A stretch of 43,024 nt of DNA from an uncultured Enterobacteriaceae bacterium (GCA_964562815.1 CAZLUX010000004.1:1-43024); one strand, 5' to 3'. Shown: positions 7,651 to 36,716, numbered from the stretch's first letter. Numbers and translations are program-made. The notes: generated from the letters alone by a model not told the origin.

Positions 7651-7660
7651 GGAAGATACC

Positions 7661-7987: not shown

Positions 7988-8011
7988 ATGGCGCCCGCCG
8001 CCGGCCGGGCC

Positions 8012-8641
8012 TCAGCGGCCGCCGAACAGCATCATCGTGGCGCCGATCGCCGGAACCAGCGCGCCGAGCGCAATCAGAGTCCCCGCGATGCGGGGATAGG
8101 CGCGCACCACGTTGTCGATCGTCAGATCCATCGCGTCGGCCTTTCTCGCCAGCCGGCGGGCCGAAATCCAGCGGTTGGCGCGGGCGGCCAGCGGCTCCAG
8201 CATTTGCGGGAAGAACGCGAGCACGACGCCGATCGCGAGCGCGATGGCGTTCGCTGCGATCAGCGCCCAGCGAATGCTGTTGGCGAACCACAGCAGCGGC
8301 GCCATCGAGCCGCTGGTCGTCAGCACCGCGGTAAGATCCGCTGCGCCGACCCGCAGAAGCAGGAAGTACAGTGAAAACAAGGCACCGATGAGGACCGCGA
8401 CACCAAGCCCCCGTGGGTGCCGGCGTGCGCCTTGCTCGACGTCGTGCGGGATCTCGAGCGGCCTCAGTGCAGGCCGGATCGAGGTCCACTGATTCAGCCG
8501 GTCGAGCAAGCGCAGCGCCGATTCGTTGCGCGCGATCAACGCCAGTCCGAGGAGCACGCCGACGACGCCGACGATGAGAACGAAGACGAGAACCGACGGA
8601 ACCACCACATGAGCGACGAAATAATTGTTCCAGAACCGCAT
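8012..8641 (-). CDS. Hypothetical integral membrane protein
   Basis: The ORF runs 8012..8719. I prefer the internal ATG at 8639-8641 because it is preceded by GAGGGAG. The product (MRFWNNYFVAHVVVPSVLVFVLIVGVVGVLLGLALIA...) has several hydrophobic helices. I recognise no family. Confidence 0.6.
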   Translation of the reverse strand: MRFWNNYFVAHVVVPSVLVFVLIVGVVGVLLGLALIARNESALRLLDRLNQWTSIRPALRPLEIPHDVEQGARRHPRGLGVAVLIGALFSLYFLLLRVGAADLTAVLTTSGSMAPLLWFANSIRWALIAANAIALAIGVVLAFFPQMLEPLAARANRWISARRLARKADAMDLTIDNVVRAYPRIAGTLIALGALVPAIGATMMLFGGR

Positions 8642-8700
8642 GTCTCCCTCGCCCTTTGCCGGATGAAGCGGGTTGCGATCGATTCTAGCCCTTTCCGACC

Positions 8701-10377
8701 ATGACGACGACCGGCTCACATCTTCTGACGCGCGCTTTGCGGCAGGAAGGGGTCGACACGATCTTCACGCTCGCGGGAGACCACATCCTGCCGTTGCTCG
8801 ATCTGCTGGCCGACGAGGGCTTCCGGCTGATCGACTGCCGCCACGAGCAGGCGGCGGTGCACATGGCCGACGCCTGGGGGCGGATCACGGGGCGGCTCGG
8901 GGTGTGCGCCTTCACGACGCCGGGCCACGCCAACGCGATTCCCGGGCTGGTCAATGCCCTCGCCGCCGAGAGCCCGGTGCTCAACATCGCGGGCTCCTCC
9001 GACCTGCGCAACTATCACCGCGGCATCATGCAGGAGATCGATCAGGTGGGTCTCGCGCGCCCGGCGACCAAAGGCGCGTGGCTGGTGCACGACGCGCGGC
9101 GCATCCCGGACATGGTGGCGACCGCGGTTCGCACCGCCTTCGAGGGGCGGCGGGGGCCGGTGCACCTGACGGTTCCCGTCGACGTACAGACTCAGCGTGT
9201 CGAGGAAGCCGAAGTCGGGTTCTTCGATGCGACCGCCTATCGGCCGCAGGCTCCGCGCCCGGCCGCGGACGCGCAGATCGGCGCGGCGCTGCAGCTCCTG
9301 CGCGCGGCCAAGCGGCCGCTGATCGTCGCCGGCACGCCGGCGGCCTACGGCGACTGGGGGGATTCGCTGGCGCGGCTGATCGAAATCACCAGGCTGCCGA
9401 TGATGACCGAGGAGGCCGCGCGCGGCATCGTTGCCGACGACCATCCGTACTGCTTCGGCTTCTTCGACCTGTCGCAGCACCAGCCGGCGAACCTGGTCCG
9501 GGAAGCCGACGTGGTGCTCTTGCTGGGCAAGCTGCTCGATTTCACCGTCGGCTTCGGCCTGCCGCCGATCGTGGCGCAGAACGCGAAGCTGATCCAGGTC
9601 GACCCGGCCGCCGTGCAGGTCGGGCGCAACCGGGGCGTCGAGGTCGGCATCGTCGGCGACATCGGGCCGGTGGTGGATCAGCTCGCCGCCGCGGCGGCGT
9701 CGATGCCGTGGCGTGAGCTGCCGTGGCTCGAGCGCCTGCGCGAGGTGCGCGTGGCCGAGCGCGCGCGCATCGAGGCATTCGCGACCGAAGAGGCGCCGCT
9801 GCGCTCGATGTTCGTGCACAAGACGCTCGCCGCGACGCTGCGCCCGGACGACGTGCTGGTCTTCGACGGCGGCGACTTTGCCTACTACGCGCGCGCCTAC
9901 CTGCCGGCCCTGCGGCCGCGTTCCTGGTATTACCTTCCCAGCCTGGGCATGCTGGGCCAGGCGGTGCCGACCGCGATTGCGGCCAAGCTCGCGCGCCCCG
10001 GCAGCCGCGTCTTCTGCATCACGGGCGACGGCTCGTTCGGCTTCAACGGCATGGAGCTCGACACCGCGGTGCGGCACGGCCTGGACATCGTGGTGCTGCT
10101 GGGCAACGACGCGGCCTGGGGCATCGACAAGAACATCCAGATCGGGCTGTACGGCAAGCCTGTCATCACCGACCTCGCGCCGTCGCGCTACGACCGGGTC
10201 GCAGAGGGCCTCGGTGCCCACGGCGAGCTGGTCGAGCGCCCGGAGCAGCTCGCCCCGGCGCTCGAGCGCGCCCTGGCGGCGGGGCGTCCGGCGCTGCTCA
10301 ACATCCAGGTGCAGAGCCAGATCAGCATGCGCGCGCAGGGCATCGTCGACAGCCGCAGGAAGGGCGGGGCGTTCTGA
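8701..10377 (+). CDS. Thiamine pyrophosphate-binding protein (acetolactate synthase / benzoylformate decarboxylase superfamily)
   Basis: 558 aa. N-terminal TPP_enzyme_N-like TGSHLLTRALRQEGVDTIFTLAGDHILPL. C-terminal TPP-Mg motif GDGSFGFNGMELDTAVRHGLDIVVLLGNDAAWG. Confidence 0.9.
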   Translation: MTTTGSHLLTRALRQEGVDTIFTLAGDHILPLLDLLADEGFRLIDCRHEQAAVHMADAWGRITGRLGVCAFTTPGHANAIPGLVNALAAESPVLNIAGSSDLRNYHRGIMQEIDQVGLARPATKGAWLVHDARRIPDMVATAVRTAFEGRRGPVHLTVPVDVQTQRVEEAEVGFFDATAYRPQAPRPAADAQIGAALQLLRAAKRPLIVAGTPAAYGDWGDSLARLIEITRLPMMTEEAARGIVADDHPYCFGFFDLSQHQPANLVREADVVLLLGKLLDFTVGFGLPPIVAQNAKLIQVDPAAVQVGRNRGVEVGIVGDIGPVVDQLAAAAASMPWRELPWLERLREVRVAERARIEAFATEEAPLRSMFVHKTLAATLRPDDVLVFDGGDFAYYARAYLPALRPRSWYYLPSLGMLGQAVPTAIAAKLARPGSRVFCITGDGSFGFNGMELDTAVRHGLDIVVLLGNDAAWGIDKNIQIGLYGKPVITDLAPSRYDRVAEGLGAHGELVERPEQLAPALERALAAGRPALLNIQVQSQISMRAQGIVDSRRKGGAF

Positions 10378-24748: not shown

Positions 24749-24897
24749 TGTTCTACCTCCTCGGTTTTCGGCGGCATGCCCGCGCGAAAAACGTAACATG
24801 ACGCTCGAAGCCTAAGCAATACTCGGGCCATACCTTGGCAGCCGATTGCCGCGAGTGCTGATGGCCGACACGCTCGTCGTGTAGAGTCGGAATTGCC

Positions 24898-25371
24898 ATG
24901 GAAGGCCCATCGACATCTTCGCGCCCGGACTTGAGCGCGCAAGCGTTCAACCGGCGCGGTGCGGGGCACCTGCCCGGATTGGTCGGGCTGGAGATCATTT
25001 CGGTCACCTCGGAGGCAATCGAGAGCCGCCTCCCCGTGCGCCCGGAGCTGCTCGCGCCGAACGGCTACCTGCACGCGGCCTCGGTCATCGCGCTCGCCGA
25101 CACGAGCTGCGGCTACGGCTGTGTCGTCAATTTGCCGCAAGGCGCGCGCGGGTTCACCACCATCGAGCTGAAGACGAATTTTCTCGGTACCGCGCTCGAA
25201 GGCGCGCTGCGCTGCCGTGCGGTCCCGGTCCACCTCGGGCGAACGACCCAGGTCTGGGACGCGAACGTGACCGTCGAAGGCAGCGGCAAGGGCATTGCCC
25301 TGTTCCGCTGCACCCAGATGGTACTGTGGCCGAAGGAAGGCGCCAAAGTTGCCAAACAGCGCCCCGCGTGA
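24898..25371 (+). CDS. PaaI-family hotdog-fold thioesterase
   Basis: 157 aa. NGYLHAASVIALADTSCGYG and ELKTNFLG...HLGRTTQVWD match the PaaI / uncharacterised-domain-1 thioesterase pattern. Confidence 0.85.
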   Translation: MEGPSTSSRPDLSAQAFNRRGAGHLPGLVGLEIISVTSEAIESRLPVRPELLAPNGYLHAASVIALADTSCGYGCVVNLPQGARGFTTIELKTNFLGTALEGALRCRAVPVHLGRTTQVWDANVTVEGSGKGIALFRCTQMVLWPKEGAKVAKQRPA

Positions 25372-25396
25372 TTCAATCCCCCTTGAGGTCGATGCG

Positions 25397-25462
25397 ATGA
25401 AACGCTGGTTTTACGGCTTTTTCTTCTTTTTCCCGCGCCCGCTGGCGGAAGGGAACGGCTAG
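25397..25462 (+). CDS. Candidate aromatic-amino-acid leader peptide (21 aa, MKRWFYGFFFFFPRPLAEGNG) upstream of the DAHP synthase gene
   Basis: ATG at 25397 follows GAGG at 25385-25388; stop TAG at 25460-25462. Eight of 21 codons are aromatic: 6 Phe, 1 Trp and 1 Tyr. Five Phe codons run consecutively at 25418-25432. An alternative-pairing terminator follows. Not in the supplied ORF track because it is too short. Confidence 0.6.
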   Translation: MKRWFYGFFFFFPRPLAEGNG

Positions 25463-25482
25463 CCGCATCCCGACAGATCCCG

Positions 25483-25519
25483 AAAAACCGCCAGTGCCCC
25501 AAAGCCTGGCGGTTTTTTT
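25483..25519 (+). terminator. Rho-independent terminator / attenuator hairpin (A-tract, 7-12 bp stem, U-tract)
   Basis: AAAAACCGCCAG (25483-25494), 11-nt loop, CTGGCGGTTTTTTT (25506-25519). Core stem is CCGCCAG/CTGGCGG, extendable by A:U pairs. Lies 25 nt before the aroG-type ATG. A third copy of CTGGCGG at 25442-25448 can compete for the 5' arm. Confidence 0.75.
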
Positions 25520-25544
25520 ATGCCCACCACCCAAGACCCCTGCC

Positions 25545-26681
25545 ATGACGACGCCCGCTGACAGCTTCCCGACCCATTCGCCGCTCGACAAGACCTCGCT
25601 CACCGACGATGAGCGGATCGAGAACATCGTACCGCTGCCGCCGCCGGAGCACCTGATCCGCTTCTTTCCGATCCAGGGCACGCCGGTCGAGACGCTCATC
25701 GACGACACGCGGCGCCGGGTGCGCGACATCCTGCACGGGCGCTCGGACCGGCTGCTGGTGGTGATCGGCCCTTGCTCGATCCACGACCCCACTGCGGCGC
25801 TCGCCTATGCCGAGCGCCTCGCCGCCGAGCGGGCCCGCTTCGCCGGCGAGCTCGAGGTGCTGATGCGGGTGTACTTCGAGAAGCCGCGCACCACCGTGGG
25901 CTGGAAGGGGCTGATCAACGATCCCTACCTGAACGGCAGTTTCCGCATCAACGAGGGGCTGCGCATCGCGCGCGACCTGCTGGTGCGGATCAACCAGGCC
26001 GGCGTGCCGGCCGGCTGCGAGTTCCTCGACGTGATTTCGCCCCAGTACATCGGCGATCTGGTGTCGTGGGGCGCGATCGGCGCCCGCACGACCGAATCCC
26101 AGGTGCACCGCGAGCTCGCCTCGGGCCTTTCGGCGGCGGTCGGCTTCAAGAACGGGACCGACGGCAATGTGCGCATCGCGGTGGACGCCATCCTTGCCGC
26201 CCGGCAGAGGCACCACTTCCTCTCGGTGCACAAGAGCGGACAGGTGTCGATCGTCGAGACGCGCGGCAACGACGACTGCCACATCATCCTGCGCGGCGGC
26301 CGGCAGCCGAACTACGATGTGGCCAGCGTCAAGACCGCCTGCGACGAGCTGCGCAATGCGGGGCTCACCGAGCGCCTGATGATCGACTGCTCGCACGCCA
26401 ACAGCCGCAAGGATTACCGGCGCCAGCGCGAGGTCTGCGGCGAGATCGGTGCCCAGATCGCGGCCGGCGACGGCCGTATCCTGGGCGTCATGATCGAGTC
26501 GAATCTCGTCGAGGGACGCCAGGACCTCAAGCCGGGGCGCGCGCTGACCTTCGGCCAGAGCATCACCGACGGCTGCCTGGGGTGGGAAACGTCGGTGTCC
26601 CTGCTCGAGCGCCTCGCGCAGGCGGTTGCCGCGCGCCGCGAGGTGGCCGCGGTGGGCGATACGACCGCGGCCGGGGACTGA
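25545..26681 (+). CDS. aroG: 3-deoxy-7-phosphoheptulonate (DAHP) synthase, class I-alpha
   Basis: Near-colinear similarity to E. coli AroG as I recall it: DRLLVVIGPCSIHDP, VYFEKPRTTVGWKGLINDP, WGAIGARTTESQVHRELASGLS, GFKNGTDG, CHIILRGG, DCSHANS. Isozyme specificity (Phe/Tyr/Trp) is not determinable from the sequence. The symbol denotes the family. Confidence 0.93.
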   Translation: MTTPADSFPTHSPLDKTSLTDDERIENIVPLPPPEHLIRFFPIQGTPVETLIDDTRRRVRDILHGRSDRLLVVIGPCSIHDPTAALAYAERLAAERARFAGELEVLMRVYFEKPRTTVGWKGLINDPYLNGSFRINEGLRIARDLLVRINQAGVPAGCEFLDVISPQYIGDLVSWGAIGARTTESQVHRELASGLSAAVGFKNGTDGNVRIAVDAILAARQRHHFLSVHKSGQVSIVETRGNDDCHIILRGGRQPNYDVASVKTACDELRNAGLTERLMIDCSHANSRKDYRRQREVCGEIGAQIAAGDGRILGVMIESNLVEGRQDLKPGRALTFGQSITDGCLGWETSVSLLERLAQAVAARREVAAVGDTTAAGD

Positions 26682-26729
26682 GCCCTGGACGCGCTCTCGC
26701 CCGAGCTGATCGGCGCCGCCGCGCTGGTC

Positions 26730-27431
26730 GTGCTCGGCGCCTATGTCGTGTACGGGATGACGGGGTTCGGCTCGACCGTGCTCTCGATGCCGCTGCTCGC
26801 GCAGTTGCTGCCGCTCAAGTTCGCCGTCCCGCTGATGCTCTTGCTCGATCTCGGGGCGTTCGCGCTCTTCGGCGCGCGCTTCCGGCGCGGCATCCGCTAC
26901 GACGAGATCCGCTGGCTCGCGGCGTTCATGCTTGCGGGCATCGCGATCGGGCTGACGCTGCTGATCCGCGTCTCCGAGCAGCGCCTGCTCGCGGGACTGG
27001 GCCTTTTCGTGCTTGCGTACGCGGCCTACGGCCTGCAGCGGCGCGGCGCGCCGCTCTCGCTTGCACGCGCATGGAGCGCACCGATCGGGATCACCGGCGG
27101 GGCGCTGTCGGCCATGTTCGGCACCGGCGGCGTGCTGTTCGCGATCTTCAACAGCGGACGCATCCGCGACAAAGGCGAGCTGCGGGCGACCAACGCGGCG
27201 ATGATCATGGCGTCCTCGATCGTGCGGGTAGTGCTCTTCGGAGCCGCCGGTCTGCTGTCGCAGAGCGGGCTGATCGTGACCGCGCTCTGGCTCGCGCCGG
27301 CGATGATCGCCGGCCTCTTGATCGGCAACAGGCTGCACGCCGCGGTTCCGACCGGTGCCGTGGTGCGCGTGGTCTATCTGCTGCTGGCGGTGGCGGGCGT
27401 GTCGCTGCTGATTCGCGCGGCCTCGTCCTGA
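26730..27431 (+). CDS. TauE/SafE family sulfite-exporter-like membrane protein (start may lie upstream)
   Basis: 233 aa polytopic. GAYVVYGMTGFGSTVLSMPLL and a second repeat (TGGALSAMFGTGGVLF) are the duplicated TauE motifs. The frame is open back to 26682 (ALDALSPELIGAAALVV) with only a CTG available. Confidence 0.8.
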   Translation: MLGAYVVYGMTGFGSTVLSMPLLAQLLPLKFAVPLMLLLDLGAFALFGARFRRGIRYDEIRWLAAFMLAGIAIGLTLLIRVSEQRLLAGLGLFVLAYAAYGLQRRGAPLSLARAWSAPIGITGGALSAMFGTGGVLFAIFNSGRIRDKGELRATNAAMIMASSIVRVVLFGAAGLLSQSGLIVTALWLAPAMIAGLLIGNRLHAAVPTGAVVRVVYLLLAVAGVSLLIRAASS

Positions 27432-27441
27432 CGGTCGCGCG

Positions 27442-27464
27442 GCGGCGACTATAATCGCCGCTTT
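27442..27464 (+). terminator. Short GC hairpin with a weak T-tract after the TauE-like gene (possible weak terminator; its loop contains TATAAT)
   Basis: GCGGCGA (27442-27448), CTATAA, TCGCCGC (27455-27461), then TTT. TATAAT spans 27450-27455, about 28 nt before the TTG start of the GT39 gene. Confidence 0.3.
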
Positions 27465-27482
27465 GCGCGCGTACGGCCGATT

Positions 27483-29012
27483 TTGATTCGAATCTCCACC
27501 CGACGCTGGCTCGCAATCGCGCTCGTCGCTACGCTGGCGTTCCGCTTCTGGCTCTCGGCGGTCCTTCCCATGACCGGCGACGAAGCCTACTTCGTGCTGT
27601 GGGGCCGTCATCCGGACCTGGGCTTCTACGACCACCCGCCGATGGTCGGCTGGCTGCTCGCGCTGATCCTGCACTGGTCCGACACCGAGTGGGCGTTGCG
27701 CCTGCCGGTGACCCTGCTGCCGCCGGCGCTTGCGCTCGTGCTGCGCGCTGCGCTGCGCGGCTGGTTCGGCCGCGACGAGGACACCGCCAACCTGGCTGCG
27801 CTGTGCGTGCTGCTGGTGCCGCTGAACTTCATCAATGTCCTGATCACGACGGACACGCCGCTGATCTTTTTCTCGACGCTGTCGGTGCTGTTCTTCGCGC
27901 GCGCGGCGCAGCGCGGCTCGGCCGGCGTTTTTCTCGCTTCGGGCGTGTTCCTGGGGCTCGCATTCCTGTCCAAATATTTCGCCGTGCTTCTCGGCCTGGG
28001 CTACTTCGCCTGGGCGCTGGCCTCGCCCGGCGCGAGGCGCCGCTGGACGGGGCCGCTGCTCGTCTTCGTCGGTGCGCTGCCATTCGCGCTCGAGAACCTG
28101 TACTGGAACTACGAGGCCTGCTGGTGCAACCTGATGTTCAACGCGGTCAACCGGCAGTCGGACGCCGCCTGGTCGCTGTTGACGCCGGCGCTCTACCTTC
28201 TCTCGCTTGCCTACCTCGCGGCGCCGCTGCTGTTCTGGGCGTGGAAAGAGCGCGCGCAGCTGCGCGCGAGCGCGGCGTCGCCGGAGGCTCGCGCGCTGCT
28301 GCTGGCCTGGGCCGTTCCGTTCGCGGTATTCGCGCTGGTGTCGCTGCGCAAGGAAATCGGCCTGCACTGGATGCTTTCGTTCATGCCGGCGCTGATCGCG
28401 AGCCTGGCGCTGCTGCCGGGGCGCAGGCCGCTTGCCTCGAGCGCGCGCTTTTTTGCGTGGTTCGTCGCCCTGCACGCGCTCGCGATCGTGACCATCGCGA
28501 ATCTGCCGATGCAGACATGGAAGGGCTGGACGCGCATGTATCCGCGCATCGTCGCGTTCGTGGACACGCGCGGCGTGCTGAAGAGAGTCGAACCGTACTT
28601 CGGGCGCTACCGGCTCGCCGCGAGCAGCTACGCGGCCGCGGCCAGCTACGAGTACTACGCGGGCCGGCGGGTGATCGTGTTCGGCCCCGGCTCGTCGCAC
28701 GCGCGCCACGACGACATCCTGACCGACTTTCGCAAGCTCGACGGGGCCGACATCCTGGTGCTGCGGCCCTCGCCGCCGCCCGAGGGAGAATACCGGCCGT
28801 ACTTCCGCAGCATGCGGGTGCAAACGTTCGAGGTCCGGGGCGTCACGTTCTACGCGGTGCTCGGCCAGGGCTTCGACTATCGCGCCTACCACGACCGCGT
28901 CCTGACGTTCGTGCGCGATCACTACTACCGCCGGCCGTGGTGGCTGCCGCCGGGCCGCTGCTACTTCTGCGAGCGCTACTTCGGCAGCGGCGACTGCGGC
29001 TGGAGGCACTGA
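27483..29012 (+). CDS. Glycosyltransferase family 39 (GT-C fold, PMT_2 / ArnT-like) membrane protein
   Basis: 509 aa with a TTG start. N-terminal loop motif TGDEAYFVLWGRHPDLGFYDHPPMVGWLL is the catalytic DE-containing first periplasmic loop of ArnT/PMT-type enzymes. About 10 helices are followed by a soluble C-terminal domain of roughly 140 aa. Confidence 0.85.
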   Translation: MIRISTRRWLAIALVATLAFRFWLSAVLPMTGDEAYFVLWGRHPDLGFYDHPPMVGWLLALILHWSDTEWALRLPVTLLPPALALVLRAALRGWFGRDEDTANLAALCVLLVPLNFINVLITTDTPLIFFSTLSVLFFARAAQRGSAGVFLASGVFLGLAFLSKYFAVLLGLGYFAWALASPGARRRWTGPLLVFVGALPFALENLYWNYEACWCNLMFNAVNRQSDAAWSLLTPALYLLSLAYLAAPLLFWAWKERAQLRASAASPEARALLLAWAVPFAVFALVSLRKEIGLHWMLSFMPALIASLALLPGRRPLASSARFFAWFVALHALAIVTIANLPMQTWKGWTRMYPRIVAFVDTRGVLKRVEPYFGRYRLAASSYAAAASYEYYAGRRVIVFGPGSSHARHDDILTDFRKLDGADILVLRPSPPPEGEYRPYFRSMRVQTFEVRGVTFYAVLGQGFDYRAYHDRVLTFVRDHYYRRPWWLPPGRCYFCERYFGSGDCGWRH

Positions 29013-29884
29013 TGCTGCGCGCACGCGAGCTGGTGCGCCTGTTGCGCCCGCATCAGTGGGTCAAGAACGGCTTCGTTCTGGCCGGCCTCGTTTTCGGGCA
29101 CGGCTGGGACGACCCGCACATGGTGGTGCTTGCGCTGTCGGCGTTCCTCGCCTTCTGTCTGGCGTCGAGCGCCGTGTACGCGTTCAACGACGCCATCGAC
29201 GCGGAGCAGGACCGCGGCCACCCCGAGAAGCGTACCCGCCCCGTGGCGAAGGGCGCGGTGAGCATCGCGGAGGCCCTCACGCTCGCCGTGCTGCTCGCGC
29301 TGGGCGGGCTCGGGATCGGCGCGCTCGTATCGCTGGGGGTCGCTGCGTCGGTCGCCGGCTATCTGGTGCTCAACGCCGCCTACACGCTCGGCCTCAAGCA
29401 CGTGCCGGTGATCGACGTGCTCGCGCTCGCCGCGGGCTTCATGCTGCGGCTGCTCGCCGGGACGGCGGGGATCGGAATCGTGCCTTCGAACTGGATTCTC
29501 GCCTGCGGCGTGCTGCTGACCTTGTTCCTGGGTTTTGCCAAGCGCCGCGCCGAGCTCGACCGGCTGGCGGACGACGCGCATCAGCATCGCGCGGTGCTGG
29601 CGGCCTACAGCCCCCGGTTTCTGGACATTGCGATAACCGTGTGCGCGGCCGGAATGATCGTCGCTTACGTGTTCTACACGCTCGCGCCGGAAACGGCCGA
29701 GCTGCACGGCACGAACCGGCTCGTGCTGACGGTGCCGTGGGTGCTGCTCGGCACGCTGCGTTATCTCTTTCGCCTGCGCTTCCGCGGCGGCGGCGGCGAC
29801 CCGTCGTCCGAGCTGCTTCGAGACCCCGCGCTGACGGCGGCGGTCGTGGGATGGCTCGCCACCGTGCTGTGGCTCATCTCCTGA
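29012..29884 (+). CDS. UbiA-family prenyltransferase, decaprenyl-phosphate phosphoribosyltransferase-like (DPPR synthase type)
   Basis: ATG at 29012 forms a TGATG junction with the GT39 stop. LRPHQWVKNGFVLAGLVF and the Asp-rich motif YAFNDAIDAEQDRGHPEKRTRPVA closely resemble Rv3806c-type 5-phosphoribosyl-1-pyrophosphate:polyprenyl-phosphate transferases. 290 aa, polytopic. Confidence 0.85.
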   Translation: MLRARELVRLLRPHQWVKNGFVLAGLVFGHGWDDPHMVVLALSAFLAFCLASSAVYAFNDAIDAEQDRGHPEKRTRPVAKGAVSIAEALTLAVLLALGGLGIGALVSLGVAASVAGYLVLNAAYTLGLKHVPVIDVLALAAGFMLRLLAGTAGIGIVPSNWILACGVLLTLFLGFAKRRAELDRLADDAHQHRAVLAAYSPRFLDIAITVCAAGMIVAYVFYTLAPETAELHGTNRLVLTVPWVLLGTLRYLFRLRFRGGGGDPSSELLRDPALTAAVVGWLATVLWLIS

Positions 29885-29905
29885 GCTTTTCGGCATAATG
29901 GCCCG

Positions 29906-30466
29906 ATGGCCGCTGCCACCGAATCTCCGCTCCGCTCCCAGCTGCTCGCGCATCTCGAGTCGCTCGGCGACGCGTCGAAATTCTCCGACCGCATCCACGC
30001 CCTGATTCCGAAGTGCCGGCTGCTGGAGAATTTCTCTGCCGGCGAGGTTCGCCTGCTGGCGCATTTCATGGATGTCTACCGCGCCGAAGTCGGCACCGAG
30101 ATCATGCGCGAGGGCGAAGGCGGCGACTTCATGATGATGATCATCGAGGGCAAGGTGGAAGTGCAGAAGCGGGATCGCTGGAACACGCCCCAGGCGCTCT
30201 CGGAAGTCGAGGCCGGCCGCACGCTGGGCGAGATGTCGATGATCGACGGCGAGCCGCGCTTCGCCACCTGCATGGCGATCGAGCCGACGCTGATCGCGGT
30301 GCTCGACCGCGAGCGGCTGGCGCGCATCATCGTCGAGCAGCCGATGCTCGGCGCCAAGATCCTGATGGAGTTGGTGTTGATGCTGTCGCAGCGCTTGCGC
30401 GCGACCAGCGAGCGCCTGCTCGGCCTGCTGGACGAAAAGTCGCGGCGCGGCGTCGGCAGCCTGTGA
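29906..30466 (+). CDS. Cyclic nucleotide-binding domain protein (stand-alone CAP/cNMP effector domain, no HTH)
   Basis: 186 aa. FSAGEVRLLAHFMDVYRAEVGTEIMREGEGGDFMMMIIEGKVEV...GRTLGEMSMIDGEPRFATCMA is a canonical cNMP-binding beta-barrel with a phosphate-binding cassette-like GEMS..R.AT. Confidence 0.85.
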   Translation: MAAATESPLRSQLLAHLESLGDASKFSDRIHALIPKCRLLENFSAGEVRLLAHFMDVYRAEVGTEIMREGEGGDFMMMIIEGKVEVQKRDRWNTPQALSEVEAGRTLGEMSMIDGEPRFATCMAIEPTLIAVLDRERLARIIVEQPMLGAKILMELVLMLSQRLRATSERLLGLLDEKSRRGVGSL

Positions 30467-30545
30467 CGGGCCGTCGGCGGGGCGGATCTGTAAGGCTTCG
30501 CGCCCCCGCGCGACTGAGTCATAGCGACAACGACAAGGACGCCAC

Positions 30546-31511
30546 ATGCACGCGACCCTGCCCCTGATGCGGCATTACGGGTTCCCGCCGGTCCGGCGCG
30601 GCCGCCTCGAGACGCTCCAGGTCAACCTCGGCTACCGCTGCAACCAGAGCTGCCTGCACTGCCACGTCAACGCCGGCCCGAACCGCAGCGAGCAGATGTC
30701 CGCGGAAACCGTCACCGACGTGCTCGCGTTCATGGAGGTGGCCGGAATCAAGAAACTCGACCTCACCGGCGGCGCGCCCGAGCTCAATCCGCGTTTCCGA
30801 GACCTGGTCCGGCGCGCGCGGGCGCTGGGGGTCCATGTGATGGACCGCTGCAACCTGACGATTCTCGAGGAGCCGGGCCAGGAGGACCTGGGCGAGTTCC
30901 TCGCCCGCGAGGGCGTCGAGGTGATCGCGTCGCTGCCCTGCTATCAGGAGGACAACGTCGACCGGCAGCGAGGCAGCGGCGTGTTCGGGCGCAGCCTGCG
31001 CGCGCTCGCGCGCCTGAACGCGCTCGGCTACGGCAAGGGTGTCCCGGGCCTCGAGCTGAGCCTGGTGTACAACCCGCAGGGTGCGGTACTGCCGCCATCG
31101 CAGGCGCAACTCGAGGCGGACTACAAGCGCGAGCTGGGCGAGCGCTACGGGATCGCATTCGACCGGCTGTACGTGCTCGCCAACATGCCGATTCAGCGCT
31201 TCGGCTCGATGCTGGTCTCGAAGGGGCAATTCAACGAGTACATGCGGCTGCTGCACGGCGCCCACAGAAGCGAGAACGTCGAATCGGTGATGTGCCGCAG
31301 CCTGATCTCGGTCGACTGGCGCGGCTACGTTTACGACTGCGATTTCAATCAGATGCTCGAGCTGCCGCTCGAGATGGAAGGCACGCAACGGCCGCAGCTT
31401 TCGGATCTGATCGGACGGGATCTTGTCGGCAACCCGATCGCGGTCCGCGACCATTGCTACGGCTGCACCGCCGGCCAGGGCTCCTCCTGCGGCGGCGCGC
31501 TGCATGACTGA
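30546..31511 (+). CDS. arsS: Radical SAM / Cys-rich-domain protein of the ArsS family (rSAM/selenodomain family; annotated in databases as arsenosugar biosynthesis radical SAM protein)
   Basis: 321 aa. Radical SAM cluster motif GYRCNQSCLHCH. C-terminal Cys-rich tail HCYGCTAGQGSSCGG. Genomic context includes the four partner families usually found with it. Confidence 0.88.
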   Translation: MHATLPLMRHYGFPPVRRGRLETLQVNLGYRCNQSCLHCHVNAGPNRSEQMSAETVTDVLAFMEVAGIKKLDLTGGAPELNPRFRDLVRRARALGVHVMDRCNLTILEEPGQEDLGEFLAREGVEVIASLPCYQEDNVDRQRGSGVFGRSLRALARLNALGYGKGVPGLELSLVYNPQGAVLPPSQAQLEADYKRELGERYGIAFDRLYVLANMPIQRFGSMLVSKGQFNEYMRLLHGAHRSENVESVMCRSLISVDWRGYVYDCDFNQMLELPLEMEGTQRPQLSDLIGRDLVGNPIAVRDHCYGCTAGQGSSCGGALHD

Positions 31512-32448
31512 GCAGCGGCCGGGGCGCGCCTGTCCGGCCGGCTATCGCTACGGCGCGCGGGCGCTGGCGGCGCCGGCCGCGCTTCGGGTCGATACGCTCT
31601 GGGTCGCGGGCGGGCTCTACGGCAACGGCCTGGCGCTCGAGCGGCTGCTCGAGCTCTTCGAAGGCGAGCCCGGGTCCAAGGCCCTGGTGTTCAACGGCGA
31701 CTTCCACTGGTTCGACGTCGACCCGCAGCGCTTCGCCGAAGTGAACCGCCGCGTCCTCGGGCACGCCGCCACCCGCGGCAACGTGGAAACCGAGCTGGCT
31801 GACCCGGCGGCGGGAGCCGGCTGCGGCTGCGGCTATCCGGATTGGGTCGACGATGCGGACGTGGAACGATCCAACCGCATCATCGAGCGCCTGCGCGAGA
31901 CCGCCCGGCGCCTGCCGCAAGCCGTCGCGGCGCTCGCGAAATTGCCGATGCATCGGGTCGCGCAGGTCGGCGATGAGCGCATCGGCGTCGTACACGGCGA
32001 CGCGGAGTCGCTCGCCGGCTGGGGTTTCTCGCAGGAGGTGCTCGCCAGCGCGGCCGGCGCGCGGGCCGCGCACGAGGCCTGCGTGCGCGCCGGCGTTCGC
32101 GTGTTCGCCTCCAGCCACAGCTGCCTGCCGGTGCTGCAGCGCCTGGATGCCGGTTGCGTGATCATCAACAACGGCGCGGCCGGGATGCCGAATTTCGCGG
32201 GAACGCGTTTCGGCCTGGCGACCCGGATCTCGGTCAGGCCCGGCAGGCAGCCGTTGTACGGGGCGCGCGCGGGCGGGCTGTGGGTCGAGGCCGCGGCGCT
32301 CGAGTACGACTTCGCGGCCTGGGAGCGGGAGTTCGTCGCGCAGTGGCCGCCGGGGAGCGACGCCCACCGTTCGTATTACCAGCGCATCGTGCGGGGGCCG
32401 CGCTACGCCCGCGAGCAGGCGCTGCGCGTCGCCGAGGCGGTGGCATGA
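31504..32448 (+). CDS. Metallophosphoesterase-like protein, rSAM/selenodomain-associated type (TIGR04168-like)
   Basis: ATG at 31504 overlaps the arsS-like stop by 8 nt. Degenerate calcineurin-like motifs: WVAGGLYGN, VFNGDFHWFD, TRGNVE, VVHGDAES, ASSHSC. The family assignment is from memory of the conserved neighbourhood. Confidence 0.65.
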   Translation: MTEQRPGRACPAGYRYGARALAAPAALRVDTLWVAGGLYGNGLALERLLELFEGEPGSKALVFNGDFHWFDVDPQRFAEVNRRVLGHAATRGNVETELADPAAGAGCGCGYPDWVDDADVERSNRIIERLRETARRLPQAVAALAKLPMHRVAQVGDERIGVVHGDAESLAGWGFSQEVLASAAGARAAHEACVRAGVRVFASSHSCLPVLQRLDAGCVIINNGAAGMPNFAGTRFGLATRISVRPGRQPLYGARAGGLWVEAAALEYDFAAWEREFVAQWPPGSDAHRSYYQRIVRGPRYAREQALRVAEAVA

Positions 32449-34598
32449 GCAGGTCGCGGCTCGCGCTCCTCGTGGTGATCGTGCTTCTGGTGGCGGCTTT
32501 CTTCGCCGCCGGCGGCCAGCGCTACCTCAGCTTCGAGACCATCAAGTCGGAGCAGGAAGCGATCCTCGGCTACTACGCCTCGCACCCGTGGCAGACCGCC
32601 CTCGGCTTCTTCGTCGCCTATGTGGCCGTCACCGGTCTCTCGCTCCCCGGCGCGGCGCTCATGACGCTGGTCGCGGGGGCGATCTTCGGCCTGCTGTGGG
32701 GCACCGTGATCGTGTCGTTCGCCTCGACGATCGGGGCGACGCTTGCCTTCCTTGCCAGCCGCTTCCTCTTGCGCGACTGGGTCCAGCGGCGCTTCGGCCA
32801 CGCGCTGCGCGCGGTGAACGAGGGCGTCGCGCGCGAGGGCGCGTTCTACCTGTTCACCCTGCGGCTGATCCCGGCGGTGCCTTTCTTCGTGATCAACCTC
32901 GCGCTGGGCCTGACGCCGATCCGCACCGCCACCTTCTACTGGGTGAGTCAGCTCGGCATGCTCGCCGGGACGATCGTGTACGTGAACGCCGGCACCCGGC
33001 TGGCGGCGATCGAGTCGCCTGCGGGGATCCTCTCTCCTGGCCTGCTGGGCGCCTTCGTCCTGCTCGGGCTGTTTCCGCTGCTGGCGAAGAAGGCGCTCGA
33101 CGCGGTCAAGGCGCGTCGTGTCTATGCAAGATGGAAGCGCCCGCGGCGCTTCGACCGCAACCTGGTGGTGATCGGCGCCGGCTCGGCCGGACTGGTCAGC
33201 GCGTACATCGCGGCCGCGGTCCGCGCCAAAGTGACGCTGATCGAGAAGCACCGCATGGGCGGCGACTGCCTCAACACGGGCTGCGTGCCGTCCAAGGCGC
33301 TGATCAGGACGGCGCGGGTGCTGGCCGAGATCCGGCGCGCCCCGGAATACGGCCTGAAGTCCGCCCACGCCGAGTTCGACTTCGCCGAGGTGATGGAGCG
33401 CGTGCAGCGCGTCGTGCGCGCGGTCGAGCCGCACGACTCCGCCGAGCGCTACACCGCGCTCGGCGTCGAATGTCTGCATGGGGAGGCGAAGATCGTCTCC
33501 CCCTGGGAAGTGGAGGTCGCGCTCGAGGGCGGCGAGACGCGGCGCCTGTCCACCCGCGCCATCGTGATCGCCGCCGGGGCGCGCCCTTTCGTGCCGCCGA
33601 TTCCGGGCATCGAGCAGGTCGGCTGCCTCACCTCCGACACGGTCTGGGCGCTGCGCGAGCTGCCGCGGCGGCTGGTGGTGCTGGGAGGCGGGCCGATCGG
33701 CTGCGAGCTCGCGCAGTGCTTCGCCCGCTTCGGCGCGAAGGTGACGCAGGTCGAGATGCTGCCGCGACTCATGGTGCGCGAAGACCCCGAGATCTCCGCG
33801 ATGGTGATGCAGAAATTCCGCGACGAGGGGATCGAGGTGCTGGTCGGGCACAAGGCCAAGGCCTTCCGGGTCGAGAACGGGGAAAAGGTTTTGATCGCCG
33901 AGCACGACGGAGCCGAAGCGCGCATCGCTTTCGACGCGCTGCTGTGCGCGGTGGGGCGCGTGGCGAACACCGAGGGCTACGGGCTCGAGGCGCTCGGCAT
34001 TCCGGTCACGCGCCAGCGCACGGTCGAGACCAACGAGTTCCTGCAGACGGCCTTCCCGAACATCTACGCCTGCGGCGACGTCGCCGGGCCCTACCAGTTT
34101 ACGCACGTCGCCGCGCACCAGGCCTGGTACGCTGCCGTGAACGCGCTGTTCGGAGGCTTGCGCAGGTTCCGGGCGGACTATTCGGTGATTCCGTGGGCGA
34201 CCTTCACCGACCCCGAGGTGGCGCGCGTCGGCCTGAACGAAAACGAGGCCAAAGAACGCGGCGTGCCGTACGAGGTCTCGACCTACGGCATCGACGACCT
34301 CGACCGCGCGATCGCGGACGAAGAGGCGCATGGCGTGGTCAAGGTGCTCACCGTGCCGGGCAAGGACCGCATCCTCGGCGTGACGATCGTCGGCGCGCAC
34401 GCGGGCGAGCTGATTGCCGAGTTCGTCGCCGCGATGCGCCACGGCCTGGGGTTGAACAAGATTCTCGGCACGATCCATGTCTACCCGACGCTCGCCGAGG
34501 CGAACAAGTACGCCGCCGGCGTCTGGAAGAAGGCGCATGCGCCGCAGGGCGCGCTGCGCGCGATCGAGCGGTTCCACGGATGGATGCGCGGCGGATGA
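32445..34598 (+). CDS. Fusion protein: N-terminal DedA / TVP38-TMEM64 (SNARE-associated) membrane domain plus C-terminal FAD-dependent pyridine nucleotide-disulfide oxidoreductase (mercuric reductase / dihydrolipoamide dehydrogenase-like)
   Basis: ATG at 32445 forms an ATGA overlap with the upstream stop; 717 aa. Membrane half: LPGAALMTLVAGAIFG...FYLFTLRLIPAVPFFVINLALG. Flavoprotein half: VVIGAGSAGLVSAY, redox-active GGDCLNTGCVPSKAL, second Rossmann fold VVLGGGPIGCELAQ, and the dimerisation region HVYPTLAEA. Confidence 0.9.
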   Translation: MSRSRLALLVVIVLLVAAFFAAGGQRYLSFETIKSEQEAILGYYASHPWQTALGFFVAYVAVTGLSLPGAALMTLVAGAIFGLLWGTVIVSFASTIGATLAFLASRFLLRDWVQRRFGHALRAVNEGVAREGAFYLFTLRLIPAVPFFVINLALGLTPIRTATFYWVSQLGMLAGTIVYVNAGTRLAAIESPAGILSPGLLGAFVLLGLFPLLAKKALDAVKARRVYARWKRPRRFDRNLVVIGAGSAGLVSAYIAAAVRAKVTLIEKHRMGGDCLNTGCVPSKALIRTARVLAEIRRAPEYGLKSAHAEFDFAEVMERVQRVVRAVEPHDSAERYTALGVECLHGEAKIVSPWEVEVALEGGETRRLSTRAIVIAAGARPFVPPIPGIEQVGCLTSDTVWALRELPRRLVVLGGGPIGCELAQCFARFGAKVTQVEMLPRLMVREDPEISAMVMQKFRDEGIEVLVGHKAKAFRVENGEKVLIAEHDGAEARIAFDALLCAVGRVANTEGYGLEALGIPVTRQRTVETNEFLQTAFPNIYACGDVAGPYQFTHVAAHQAWYAAVNALFGGLRRFRADYSVIPWATFTDPEVARVGLNENEAKERGVPYEVSTYGIDDLDRAIADEEAHGVVKVLTVPGKDRILGVTIVGAHAGELIAEFVAAMRHGLGLNKILGTIHVYPTLAEANKYAAGVWKKAHAPQGALRAIERFHGWMRGG

Positions 34599-35374
34599 GG
34601 CTTGCGGCCGCCACTTTCGTGCTGATCGTGACGGCCGTGCCCGGAGCGGCGCAGGGTTTTGACCCGTCGCACGCGGCGTGGACCGCGTTGCTCGGGCGGC
34701 ACGTGGTGGTGCTCGATGGCGGAAAAGCCTCGCGCGTTCGCTATTCCGGGTTCGCCCGGGACCGCGTTGCGCTCGATGCCTATCTCGGCGCGCTGGCGGC
34801 CGTGACGCGCCCGCAGTTCGAGCGCTGGCCGCGGGCCGAGCAGATGGCCTTCCTGATCAACACCTACAACGCACGCATGGTGCAGAAGGTGCTGACCCGC
34901 TATCCCGACCTGCGCTCGGTGTGGGATTTCGGGAGGTTTTTCGGCAATCCCTTCAAGGACGATTTCTTCACCCTGCTTGGGCGCAAAGCCTCGCTCGACG
35001 ACGTCGAGGGAATGCTGCGCGAGCCCGGCGCCTACGACGATCCGCGCGTGCACTTCGCGCTCAACTGTGCCTCGGTGGGATGCCCGATGCTCAGACGGCA
35101 GGCCTATGTCGGCGCGAAGCTCGACTCCCAGCTCGAGGATCAGGCGCGCCGCTTCCTGACCGATCGCAGCCGCAACCGCTACGATGCGGTGTCAGGGCGG
35201 CTCGAGGTCTCCAGGATCTTCGACTGGTACGAGAGGGACTGGCCGCCACGTTATCTCGAGCGCCACGCCGCGCAGCTTGCCGACGACGCCGCGGCGCGCG
35301 CACGAATCGCGGCGGGTGGGTTCGAGCTTGCCTATCTCGACTACGATTGGACACTGAACGACGCGAAGGAGTAG
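34595..35374 (+). CDS. DUF547 domain-containing protein, exported
   Basis: ATG at 34595 forms an ATGA overlap. Signal peptide MRLAAATFVLIVTAVPGAAQG. AFLINTYNARMVQKVL, DPRVHFALNCASVGCP and FDWYERDW are the DUF547 hallmark motifs. Confidence 0.8.
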   Translation: MRLAAATFVLIVTAVPGAAQGFDPSHAAWTALLGRHVVVLDGGKASRVRYSGFARDRVALDAYLGALAAVTRPQFERWPRAEQMAFLINTYNARMVQKVLTRYPDLRSVWDFGRFFGNPFKDDFFTLLGRKASLDDVEGMLREPGAYDDPRVHFALNCASVGCPMLRRQAYVGAKLDSQLEDQARRFLTDRSRNRYDAVSGRLEVSRIFDWYERDWPPRYLERHAAQLADDAAARARIAAGGFELAYLDYDWTLNDAKE

Positions 35375-35388
35375 CACCGCGGATCACC

Positions 35389-36045
35389 GTGGTGATCCCG
35401 GCGCTGAACGAGGCCGCAGGCATCGTGCGCGCGCTGCAGGCGCTCGCGCCGCTGCGCCGCCGCGGGCACGAGGTGATCGTGGTCGACGGCGGCAGCGAAG
35501 ACGCCACCGCGGACCTCGCGCGGCCGTTCGCCGACCAGGTGCTGACGGCGTCGCGCGGGCGCGCGCTGCAGATGAACGCCGGCGCACGCGCCGCACGCGG
35601 CACGTCCTTGCTCTTTCTGCACGCGGACGTGCGCCTGCCCGAGGGCGCGGATCGCATGGTGGCGAACGCGCTCGGCGAGCGGTGCTGGGGCCGTTTCGAC
35701 GTCGCGCTCGACAGCCCGCGCGCAGTGCTCGCGCTCATCGGCGCGATGATGAACCTGCGCTCGAGGCTCACGGGCATCGCCACCGGCGACCAGGCGCTGT
35801 TCGTGCGCCGGGACGTGTTCGAGTCGGCGGGCGGCTATGCGGAAATTCCGCTGATGGAGGACATCGAGCTCTCGGCCCGGCTGCGCCGCTTCGGGCGCCC
35901 CGCCTGCCTGCGGGCGCGCGTGCGGGTGTCCGCGCGCCGCTGGCAGGCGCGCGGCGCGCTGCGCACGGTTGTGCTCATGTGGCGCCTGCGGCTGGCCTAT
36001 TTCCTCGGCGCCGACCCGGCGCGGCTGGCCGAGCGCTACCGCTGA
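35389..36045 (+). CDS. Family 2 glycosyltransferase, rSAM/selenodomain-associated transferase 2 type (TIGR04283-like)
   Basis: VVIPALNEAAGI...VIVVDGGSEDAT...LLFLHADVRLP is a GT-A/GT2 N-terminus. The start is uncertain: GTG at 35389 or TTG at 35347. Stop TGA at 36043-36045. Confidence 0.78.
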   Translation: MVIPALNEAAGIVRALQALAPLRRRGHEVIVVDGGSEDATADLARPFADQVLTASRGRALQMNAGARAARGTSLLFLHADVRLPEGADRMVANALGERCWGRFDVALDSPRAVLALIGAMMNLRSRLTGIATGDQALFVRRDVFESAGGYAEIPLMEDIELSARLRRFGRPACLRARVRVSARRWQARGALRTVVLMWRLRLAYFLGADPARLAERYR

Positions 36046-36716
36046 TGCGCGCCGGGGCGCTGGTGATCGTGTTCGCGCGCGCCCCACAGCCCGGGCGGGT
36101 GAAGACGCGCCTCGTGCCGCGCCTGGGCGAGTGGGGCGCGGCACAGCTGCACCGGCGCCTCGTAAGGCGCACGCTGCGCGTCGCCCGGGCGGCGCGCTGC
36201 GGGCCCGTCGAGCTGCACGGCACGCCGCGCGCGAGGCACGGGTTCTTCCTGCAGTGCGCGCAAGCCCACGGCGTCGCCCTGCGCGAGCAGCGCGGCCGCG
36301 ACCTGGGTGAGCGCATGTTCAATGCCATCGCCGGGGGCCTGCGCAGGCGGCGCGCGGTGATCCTGGTCGGCACGGATTGCCCGGCGCTGGAAGCGCGCGA
36401 CCTGCGCCGTGCCGCGCGCGCGCTGGCCGGCGGCTGCGACGCGGTCCTCGCTCCCGTCGAGGACGGGGGCTATGCGCTGATCGGCCTGCGGCGCGCGTCG
36501 CCGGGCCTGTTCGAGCGCATCGCCTGGGGCGGATCCGACGTGTTCGCGCGCAGCGCGGACGCGCTCGAGCGCCTGGGCTGGCGCTGGCGGCGGCTGCGCA
36601 CGCTATGGGACGTCGACCACCCGCAGGACCTGACGCGTCTGGGCGGGTGGAGCCAACGTCGCCGCTTTACTTGCGATCGGGAAACAGGCGCGAGGCGTGC
36701 CACATGTAGAAGCTGA
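36045..36716 (+). CDS. DUF2064 / CofC-like nucleotidyltransferase-fold protein, rSAM/selenodomain-associated transferase 1 type (TIGR04282-like)
   Basis: ATG at 36045 forms a TGATG junction with the GT2 stop. LVIVFARAPQPGRVKTRL, VILVGTDCP and PVEDGGYALIGL are the DUF2064 signature motifs. 223 aa. Confidence 0.8.
   Translation: MRAGALVIVFARAPQPGRVKTRLVPRLGEWGAAQLHRRLVRRTLRVARAARCGPVELHGTPRARHGFFLQCAQAHGVALREQRGRDLGERMFNAIAGGLRRRRAVILVGTDCPALEARDLRRAARALAGGCDAVLAPVEDGGYALIGLRRASPGLFERIAWGGSDVFARSADALERLGWRWRRLRTLWDVDHPQDLTRLGGWSQRRRFTCDRETGARRATCRS

Follow-up and report, generated by a model that had tools for sequence, protein, structure and literature searches.

In the O antigens of Citrobacter youngae, a UbiA-type polyprenyl-phosphate 5-phosphoribosyltransferase (PPPRS) makes polyprenyl-phospho-ribofuranose from phosphoribosyl pyrophosphate (PRPP), and a GT-C glycosyltransferase transfers ribofuranose (Ribf) in the periplasm (Kelly et al. 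2024, PNAS, PMC11127046). Epimerases linked to these genes set the pentose, an NAD-epimerase leading to xylofuranose (Xylf) and DprE1/DprE2 to arabinofuranose (Araf), and the GT-C is donor-promiscuous (PMC11127046). With a phosphatase-dead Citrobacter enzyme, some dephosphorylated product and Ribf side chains were still formed (PMC11127046). Here we analysed a pair of adjacent genes, encoding a GT-C enzyme and a UbiA-family protein, at positions 27483-29884 of a 43,024-nucleotide stretch of DNA (the window; GCA_964562815.1, CAZLUX010000004.1:1-43024). An earlier reading of this DNA from its sequence alone (hereafter the sequence-only reading) had held that the pathway is known outside the Actinobacteria from a few special cases, a statement superseded by the finding that such pathways are widespread there (Kelly et al. 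2024, PMC11127046). This window makes up the greater part of one contig in the metagenome-assembled genome (MAG) of an uncultured soil Burkholderiales betaproteobacterium, which comprises 3.13 Mb in 336 contigs, is approximately 98% complete, and has 69% G+C. We consider it probable, though well short of certain, that the pair loads ribose from PRPP onto a lipid carrier and then adds ribofuranose to an envelope target outside the inner membrane.

The two enzymes and their coupling

Two open reading frames of 509 and 290 codons joined by a TGATG junction were found as the sequence-only reading had claimed, and the motifs it had quoted were located at residues 31-37 (TGDEAYF) and 48-53 (FYDHPP) of the GT-C and at residues 14-22 (HQWVKNGFV) and 59-77 (NDAIDAEQDRGHPEKRTRP) of the UbiA protein. 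Third codon positions are G+C-rich in both frames, as in real genes of this genome. The features of the pair are as follows.

27483..29012, + strand: GT-C glycosyltransferase, 509 aa, TTG start, TGA stop at 29010-29012; predicted periplasmic pentofuranosyltransferase
29012..29884, + strand: UbiA-family protein assigned as polyprenyl-phosphate 5-phosphoribosyltransferase (PPPRS; decaprenylphosphoryl-5-phosphoribose (DPPR)-synthase type), 290 aa, ATG start at 29012-29014
29010..29014, + strand: TGATG stop/start overlap joining the GT-C and UbiA genes, read from the sequence
27573..27641, + strand: first periplasmic loop of the GT-C, with the putative catalytic/donor-binding motifs TGDEAYF (31-37) and FYDHPP (48-53)
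28701..28715, + strand: A-R-H-D-D stretch, residues 407-411, in the C-terminal periplasmic domain of the GT-C, recognised by conservation
29186..29254, + strand: cytoplasmic loop II of UbiA, N59-D60-x-x-D63-x-x-x-D67-R-x-H-P-x-K-R-x-R-P-x-A-x-G81, predicted Mg2+/PRPP site
29540..29557, + strand: cytoplasmic loop IV motif of UbiA, K177-R-R-A-E-L182

The UbiA protein matched PF01040 (E = 6.6e-26), with no additional or fused phosphatase domain in its 290 aa. It passed the curated equivalog cut-offs of two models for decaprenyl-phosphate phosphoribosyltransferase, scoring 254.3 bits against a cut-off of 234 for NF008977 and 216.4 bits against 207 for NF008978, whereas the models for heme O synthase, 4-hydroxybenzoate prenyltransferase, chlorophyll synthase and archaeal lipid prenyltransferase gave at most 55 bits (UbiA, CyoE and ChlG at most 40). 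Its residues 7-285 were collinear with residues 17-295 of the solved Mycobacterium tuberculosis enzyme Rv3806c (PDB 8J8J, 302 aa; E = 2.1e-33). In loop II, which corresponds to NDVRDVEADREHPTKRFRPIAAG of Rv3806c in the alignment, N59, D60, D63, D67, R68, H70, P71, K73, R76, P77, A79 and G81 are invariant among orthologues, as are K177, R178, R179, A180 and E181 of loop IV, whose counterpart in Rv3806c is GKRYAEL. The activity of C. youngae ORF15 requires the N/D residues equivalent to those of loop II, the R/E motif of loop IV is conserved among PPPRS enzymes, and in Citrobacter and in mycobacteria the counterparts of both loops have been shown to be important (Kelly et al. 2024, PMC11127046). 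The UbiA gene evolves with a dN/dS of 0.12-0.15 against close relatives, and the database name decaprenyl-phosphate phosphoribosyltransferase is already borne by homologues across many non-actinobacterial lineages. These family models and alignments indicate that the UbiA protein belongs to the polyprenyl-phosphate 5-phosphoribosyltransferases of the Rv3806c type; the earlier assignment, which had likened it to Rv3806c rather than to the quinone prenyltransferases, is correct, and no grouping with the quinone or heme enzymes was seen. Apart from this protein, a second, remoter UbiA-type phosphoribosyltransferase paralogue occurs in many Burkholderiales, among them two members of the window's genus (G006:C4:1657445-1658248 and G002:C189:979-1779) and approximately 29 genomes of the order. 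It shows 34-35% identity and scores 145-170 bits to NF008977, and the length of its open frames (470-510 aa) would fit the HAD-UbiA fusion type (NF006088), to which C. youngae ORF15 is similar.

The sole family match of the GT-C was to Pfam PMT_2 (PF13231; E = 9.5e-24, residues 50-208). No NCBIfam model matched it, those of ArnT included, the Pfam search found neither the PMT core domain (PF02366) nor a MIR domain, and a sequence search of the PDB gave nothing significant. None of its relatives is characterised; in public databases they carry the label 'glycosyltransferase family 39 protein' or 'ArnT-like'. An AlphaFold2 model built with 35 orthologues as input (pLDDT 90, pTM 0.90) was closest in fold to ArnT of Cupriavidus metallidurans (5F15, with undecaprenyl phosphate bound, TM 0.63/0.60; 5EZM, E = 2.7e-7), followed more weakly by Pmt4, Pmt1, PglB and oligosaccharyltransferase (OST) subunits, with Emb/Aft matching weakly. 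The term 'family 39' of the sequence-only reading is only a generic database name: the closest fold is that of ArnT (5F15), PF02366 and MIR are missing, and Pmt4 is a weaker match. On this model, the protein is best described as an ArnT-like GT-C_A enzyme of an unnamed family, and not as PMT/GT39 in the strict sense. Across the 35 orthologues, which come from both types of gene cassette described below, D33, E34, A35, Y36, F37, Y49, D50, H51, P52 and P53 of the first periplasmic loop and R408, D410 and D411 of the C-terminal domain are invariant. The position of the putative catalytic loop after the first transmembrane segment is that of other GT-C enzymes (Kelly et al. 2024, PMC11127046). The motif residues quoted for the two proteins are unchanged in orthologues as distant as 37% (GT-C) and 53% (UbiA) identity.

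The distribution of the two genes was followed in three samples, namely a wide scan with one genome per species, which returned at least 486 relatives and of which the best 80 loci were used for locus counts, a close comparison set of 41 relatives, and an even sample of 401 genomes of the order. The GT-C and UbiA genes are adjacent in approximately 72 of the 80 loci; in the rest, contigs end or, in 2-3 loci, no GT-C lies within 10 kb. Where the arrangement is that of the window (61 loci), the genes abut or overlap, the median distance between their matches being 8 nt, and the pairwise identities of the two proteins correlate (r = 0.88, 68 loci). Every genome of the close set with an intact UbiA orthologue carries a GT-C orthologue alongside. 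In one congener, G005, TauE is directly joined to the gene for a cyclic nucleoside monophosphate (cNMP)-binding protein and exactly the GT-C and UbiA genes are missing. Both genes are under purifying selection (dN/dS 0.12-0.19 overall, 0.16-0.19 for the GT-C against close relatives). The adjacency is far above chance and persists in synteny over many genera, and the two genes are a unit, inherited together and missing together from a congener.

At the junction in G005 (L105, G005:C431, 4840-4900), the stop codon of TauE and the start codon of the cNMP-binding gene overlap (gcaTAATGgcc). That junction string, ggcaTAATGGCC, is also found in the window, 8 nt past the UbiA stop (29885-29905), and the last seven codons of the window's TauE differ from those of G005, so that the 2.4-kb presence/absence difference is bounded inside the TauE 3' end. 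A UbiA remnant seen in another congener (G012) was actually a contig end and is thus not evidence for deletion. Upstream of the pair, one further feature was recorded.

27428..27455, + strand: promoter-like site CTGACG, 16-nt spacer, TATAAT, in the TauE/GT-C intergenic region; consensus match only

This site was the sole sigma-70-like match in 25300-30700, agreeing with the consensus, and with the consensus only, at 10 of 12 positions. An Rfam scan of 24800-31000 (E up to 1) found no riboswitch or leader ahead of the pair.

Two-gene and six-gene forms and the choice of sugar

The 80 loci of the wide scan include two main architectures, in the first of which the upstream neighbour is usually 3-deoxy-D-arabino-heptulosonate 7-phosphate (DAHP) synthase.

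61 of 80 loci, the window's class: DAHP synthase (sometimes TauE), GT-C, UbiA and usually a cNMP-binding protein; Burkholderiales and Rhodocyclales-type lineages
13-15 of 80 loci, the second class: GT-C, DprE1-like, DprE2-like, HAD-IB, UbiA and flippase-like genes; Gallionella, Sulfuriferula, Nitrosomonadales, a Nitrospiraceae MAG and Paraperlucidibaca

The GT-C and UbiA proteins of the six-gene cassette are orthologues of those in the window (37-47% and 50-55% identity, respectively) with the same invariant residues; in Paraperlucidibaca the GT-C is placed last. The DprE1-like protein is an FAD oxidase with FAD_binding_4 and ALO domains (439 bits to NF053785), the DprE2-like protein is a short-chain dehydrogenase/reductase (SDR; 172 bits to NF053786), and the other extras are a stand-alone HAD-IB phosphatase and an LPG_synthase_TM 'flippase-like' membrane protein. 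Judged by these genes, the cassette presumably encodes a complete route from PRPP to flipped polyprenyl-phospho-arabinofuranose, and would be the arabinofuranose version of the system. Its flanks (ffh, trmD, SppA-like peptidase, APH, WbqC, GT2) gave no consistent hint of an acceptor.

The cassette is present in a cultured organism, Paraperlucidibaca baekdonensis DSM 26022 (NZ_QUNR01000003.1, 6166-13436; L074), in the order DprE1-like, DprE2-like, HAD-IB, UbiA, LPG_synthase_TM, GT-C, between ffh and the EamA/trmD region. The literature cited here names flippases of the MATE and GtrA/SMR types but does not list an MprF-type flippase-like protein for a polyprenyl-phospho-pentose. In a Nitrosomonadales MAG (L103, 8056-9939), a 627-aa membrane protein with C-terminal tetratricopeptide (TPR) repeats lies between the cassette's HAD and UbiA genes and is reminiscent of the TPR-bearing pilin arabinosyltransferase TfpW. 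In addition, an unverified phage-like contig from human faeces (MT837543.1, 898-6645; L108) encodes UbiA, HAD, a small SMR/EamA transporter, an NAD-dependent epimerase, DUF6044 and a Wzx-like protein. Its DUF6044 protein (565 aa, multi-pass) is probably the GT-C and shows no similarity to the GT-C of the window; the contig would fit the phage-borne pentofuranose systems mentioned by Kelly et al. 2024.

No DprE1, DprE2 or PAP2 gene lies within the window, as the sequence-only reading had observed. The genome as a whole has no PF04030 match and no PAP2 phosphatase of the mycobacterial pathway, and tblastn with the DprE1-like and DprE2-like proteins of the cassette returned generic FAD and SDR matches only, at 35% identity or less. 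The HAD-IB phosphatase of the cassette has no orthologue in this genome (best match 25-33% identity) and its flippase-like gene has no match there; the neighbours of the pair are TauE or DAHP synthase and the cNMP-binding protein. A DprE1-like gene (NF053785) was found in none of the 41 relatives, the best score being 86 bits. In the order-wide sample, 32 of 401 genomes (approximately 8%) pass the NF008977 cut-off. Among 36 genomes with a strong PPPRS match, the window's own included, 15 have a DprE1-like gene a few kb away, and because the other 21, some of them closed and single-contig, have none anywhere, the epimerase-less two-gene form is a stable and common state and not an assembly artefact.

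The donor is thus most likely polyprenyl-phospho-ribofuranose and not the arabinofuranose form, because the genome has no DprE1/DprE2-type 2'-epimerase while orthologous cassettes elsewhere carry one, and because the epimerase decides the pentose in the systems of Kelly et al. 2024. The earlier suggestion of a ribose rather than an arabinose donor is strengthened, as DprE1/DprE2-type genes were found neither in the genome nor in the pair-bearing relatives searched. The transferases offer less guidance. At residue 409 of the GT-C (28707-28709), 24 of 26 epimerase-less orthologues have His and 8 of 9 epimerase-linked ones have Gln, and this is the only column that separates the GT-Cs of the two cassette types; all putative active-site residues are common to both, which would fit donor promiscuity.

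These same observations bear on another possibility, which we regard as unlikely, that an unlinked, non-orthologous enzyme epimerises or otherwise modifies the lipid-linked ribose, so that the GT-C would transfer Araf, Xylf or a modified pentose. A single NAD-dependent epimerase, ORF13, unlike DprE1/E2, is enough to give Xylf, and the characterised GT-C is donor-promiscuous (Kelly et al. 2024); the phage-like contig holds UbiA, HAD, SMR, NAD-epimerase and putative GT-C genes together, and the GT-Cs of epimerase-bearing and epimerase-less cassettes are nearly indistinguishable. However, an epimerase or oxidoreductase gene was linked to the pair in 0 of the 61 loci with this arrangement, where the neighbours are DAHP synthase or TauE upstream and the cNMP-binding protein downstream, the described systems all encode the epimerase within the cassette (Kelly et al. 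2024), and the genome has no DprE1-like gene.

Epimerase-bearing cassettes fall into one main group (SH-aLRT 90) and one outlier pair in the UbiA tree, both nested among epimerase-less sequences; the tree was rooted with Rv3806c, whose outgroup branch measures 9.2 substitutions per site, and its basal forks are unsupported. Since this nesting makes gene loss possible and the pair is dispensable within the genus, the pair could be imagined as what is left, decaying and without function, of a six-gene arabinose cassette from which the middle genes have disappeared. We think there is hardly any chance of this, as both frames are intact and overlapping, the catalytic residues are invariant over two orders, dN/dS is in the range given above (0.12-0.19), and the two-gene arrangement recurs in 61 loci and in 21 of the 36 sampled PPPRS-bearing genomes.

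Proposed mechanism, neighbouring genes and acceptor

From its family and conserved catalytic residues, the UbiA enzyme would transfer 5-phosphoribose from PRPP to polyprenyl phosphate, presumably undecaprenyl phosphate, at the cytoplasmic face of the inner membrane. The 5-phosphate would then be removed by an unlinked phosphatase and the lipid-linked ribofuranose would reach the periplasmic face, two steps for which the locus has no dedicated genes. Finally, the ArnT-like GT-C, as its adjacency, co-inheritance and fold suggest, would place ribofuranose from the lipid donor on a periplasmic acceptor. In our judgement the missing phosphatase and flippase are not fatal to this scheme, because the phosphatase-dead Citrobacter enzyme still gave dephosphorylated product and because no essential dedicated flippase has been found in Pseudomonas aeruginosa.

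The missing phosphatase also invites a different proposal, that the 5-phosphate is kept, in which case 5-phosphoribofuranose would be the unit transferred by the GT-C and the envelope would gain anionic phosphoribosyl groups. It is in keeping with this that the UbiA protein has no fused phosphatase domain and that the HAD-IB phosphatase of the cassette has no orthologue in the genome (best match 25-33% identity, as above). We nevertheless hold it to be quite improbable, given that there is no precedent for a GT-C with a phosphorylated sugar donor or for the flipping of such a head group, that in the D18A mutant of C. youngae the product is still dephosphorylated by background phosphatases, and that the active-site residues of the GT-C are the same as in phosphatase-bearing cassettes.

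Several points weigh against ribofuranosylation by the pair. The genome is a MAG of 336 contigs, though the absence of the epimerase recurs in near-closed relatives, and an unlinked, non-orthologous epimerase may be encoded elsewhere. With no phosphatase or flippase linked to the pair, the steps of dephosphorylation, flipping and transfer would lean on housekeeping activities. The two GT-C types consistently differ at one position only, so the transferase itself does not report the sugar. No neighbour indicates the acceptor, the flanks being housekeeping genes in both architectures, and the C-terminal periplasmic domain of the GT-C, which when modelled alone reached pLDDT 88, had no PDB match at E < 0.2 and so gave no clue to the acceptor either. 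Finally, one relative has a GT-C orthologue (G024:C37:431043-432674; 41-47% identity) and no PPPRS match in its genome, which means that members of this transferase family can occur without a UbiA-type donor synthase.

Downstream of the pair lies an operon of the ArsS-type radical SAM enzyme (30546-36716), which adjoins the pair in the window's genus and certain related Burkholderiales but nowhere else. The pair could serve this operon, for example by placing an ArsS-derived 5-deoxy-5-substituted ribose on the lipid, with the metallophosphoesterase-like gene at 31504-32448 supplying the phosphatase. Ten genes are co-directional in the window, the same order is kept in the genus and some related Burkholderiales, and M. 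tuberculosis makes a lipid-linked 5-methylthio-pentose from an adenosine metabolite that is transferred by a GT-C. The distribution of the genes makes this very improbable, since most loci, all of the Rhodocyclales-type ones included, have the pair without ArsS or the phosphoesterase. Within the comparison set, G019 and G023 have the pair without ArsS, G020 and G028 have both on different contigs, and G005 and G006 have ArsS without the pair. A functional link between the pair and the operon was rejected on this ground, as each occurs without the other. The sequence-only reading had put forward the metallophosphoesterase as a candidate for removal of the 5-phosphate; this proposal was dropped, because the gene is present only where ArsS is present and stays beside ArsS in G005, the congener that lacks the pair. 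Descent, not partnership with the pair, accounts for the nearness of the metallophosphoesterase gene and the ArsS operon. The cNMP-binding and DAHP synthase genes, for their part, flank the site whether the pair is present or absent.

A DedA/VTT domain fused to a MerA-like flavoprotein (32448-34598) is encoded downstream of the pair in many Burkholderiales loci. DedA proteins have been linked to the aminoarabinose modification of lipid A (PMC7835334); that the DedA/VTT-MerA-like protein might handle lipid-linked ribose is pure speculation.

As to the acceptor, a conserved envelope glycolipid or glycan is weakly favoured over a strain-variable O antigen by the conserved housekeeping location and by the ArnT-like architecture, and the overall fold of the model gives a weak hint of a lipid A or core target. 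Within the collection of papers searched, ribofuranose appeared together with lipid A or ArnT only in Kelly et al. 2024, on O-antigen side chains. A bolder conjecture would have the pair and the six-gene cassette both decorate a conserved envelope lipid (lipid A or the inner core of lipopolysaccharide, LPS) in the manner of ArnT, with Ribf where the pair stands by itself and with Araf where the epimerase-phosphatase-flippase insert is present, and be interchangeable within the genus with a hexose module formed by a GT2-GtrA protein and a PMT_2 enzyme. We put this forward as unlikely; if true, it would add to the lipid A/core modifications of Betaproteobacteria a class not described before, in which the sugar is switched naturally.

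Six genus members without the pair (G005, G006, G008, G010, G011 and G015) each have a PMT_2 paralogue with 30-33% identity. In both loci inspected, those of G015 and G006 (L107), this paralogue adjoins a GT2-GtrA fusion, a classical polyprenyl-phospho-hexose module; in G015 (L106, G015:C4) the two genes lie at 6281-7783 (+) and 7738-8820 (-). The pair-bearing genomes, the window's included, have no PMT_2 paralogue, each sampled carrier of the hexose module has no pair, and the two are complementary in 15 of 17 genomes. This complementarity may mean that one acceptor is modified in alternative ways, or may simply mark two subclades.

Significance and comparison with known systems

If the proposed function is correct, many soil and freshwater Betaproteobacteria have a two-gene periplasmic ribofuranosylation without a dedicated flippase or phosphatase. 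The two-gene and six-gene relatives would then be a natural pair for studying how a GT-C handles epimeric donors and what the conserved envelope target is. The points of interest are these natural two-gene and six-gene forms, the unnamed ArnT-like transferase family and a probably conserved acceptor. The practical value is modest: an improved annotation to replace 'glycosyltransferase family 39 protein / decaprenyl-phosphate phosphoribosyltransferase', and a compact enzyme pair for glyco-engineering.

The three-component extracytoplasmic pentofuranose systems of C. youngae O1/O2 (ORF15, PRP-PPPRS; ORF14, MATE flippase; ORF12, GT-C of family GT136) share with the window a PPPRS gene beside a GT-C gene, the same N/D residues in loop II, and the logic by which the presence of an epimerase sets the pentose, its absence meaning Ribf. 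They differ in that the window pair has neither a fused or separate phosphoribose phosphatase nor a dedicated flippase, in that its GT-C belongs to Pfam PMT_2 with an ArnT-like fold, and in location, the Citrobacter genes lying in an O-antigen locus and the window pair in a housekeeping context, from aroG to the cNMP-binding gene.

In the mycobacterial decaprenylphosphoryl-arabinose (DPA) pathway (Rv3806c, Rv3807c, DprE1, DprE2, Emb/Aft), the first enzyme is homologous over its full length to the UbiA protein and a GT-C likewise uses the donor outside the cytoplasm. The carrier there is decaprenyl phosphate, whereas that of the window pair is presumably undecaprenyl phosphate; the genome with the window has no DprE1, DprE2 or PAP2, so that its donor is probably not arabinose, and Emb/Aft are only weak fold matches to the ArnT-like GT-C. 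The D-arabinofuranosylation of pilin in P. aeruginosa PA7/Pa5196 (PsPA7_6245-6251 and TfpW) is another Gram-negative case of a PPPRS feeding a GT-C for which ArnT is the best template, but it has DprE1/DprE2, a phosphatase, a GtrA-like protein, and TfpW with TPR beside pilA, none of which is present at the window pair.

ArnT itself (GT83, the undecaprenyl-phospho-L-Ara4N:lipid A transferase) is the best full-length structural match to the modelled GT-C, with a TM score of approximately 0.6 over approximately 550 columns; the two also share a C-terminal periplasmic domain and a first periplasmic loop that holds acidic and aromatic residues. Sequence identity is only 15-16%, the window's GT-C has EAYF and YDHPP, at a different spacing, where ArnT has its signatures RYA and YFEKP (PMC5377068), and the donor synthase of ArnT is ArnC, whereas that of the window pair is of the UbiA type. 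The six-gene cassettes of Gallionella, Sulfuriferula, Nitrosomonadales and P. baekdonensis DSM 26022, themselves uncharacterised, have orthologous GT-C and UbiA enzymes and add the DprE1-like, DprE2-like, HAD-IB and LPG_synthase_TM proteins. Set beside these systems, the pair is a minimal, uncharacterised form of the pathway type published in 2024, and not a new kind of system.

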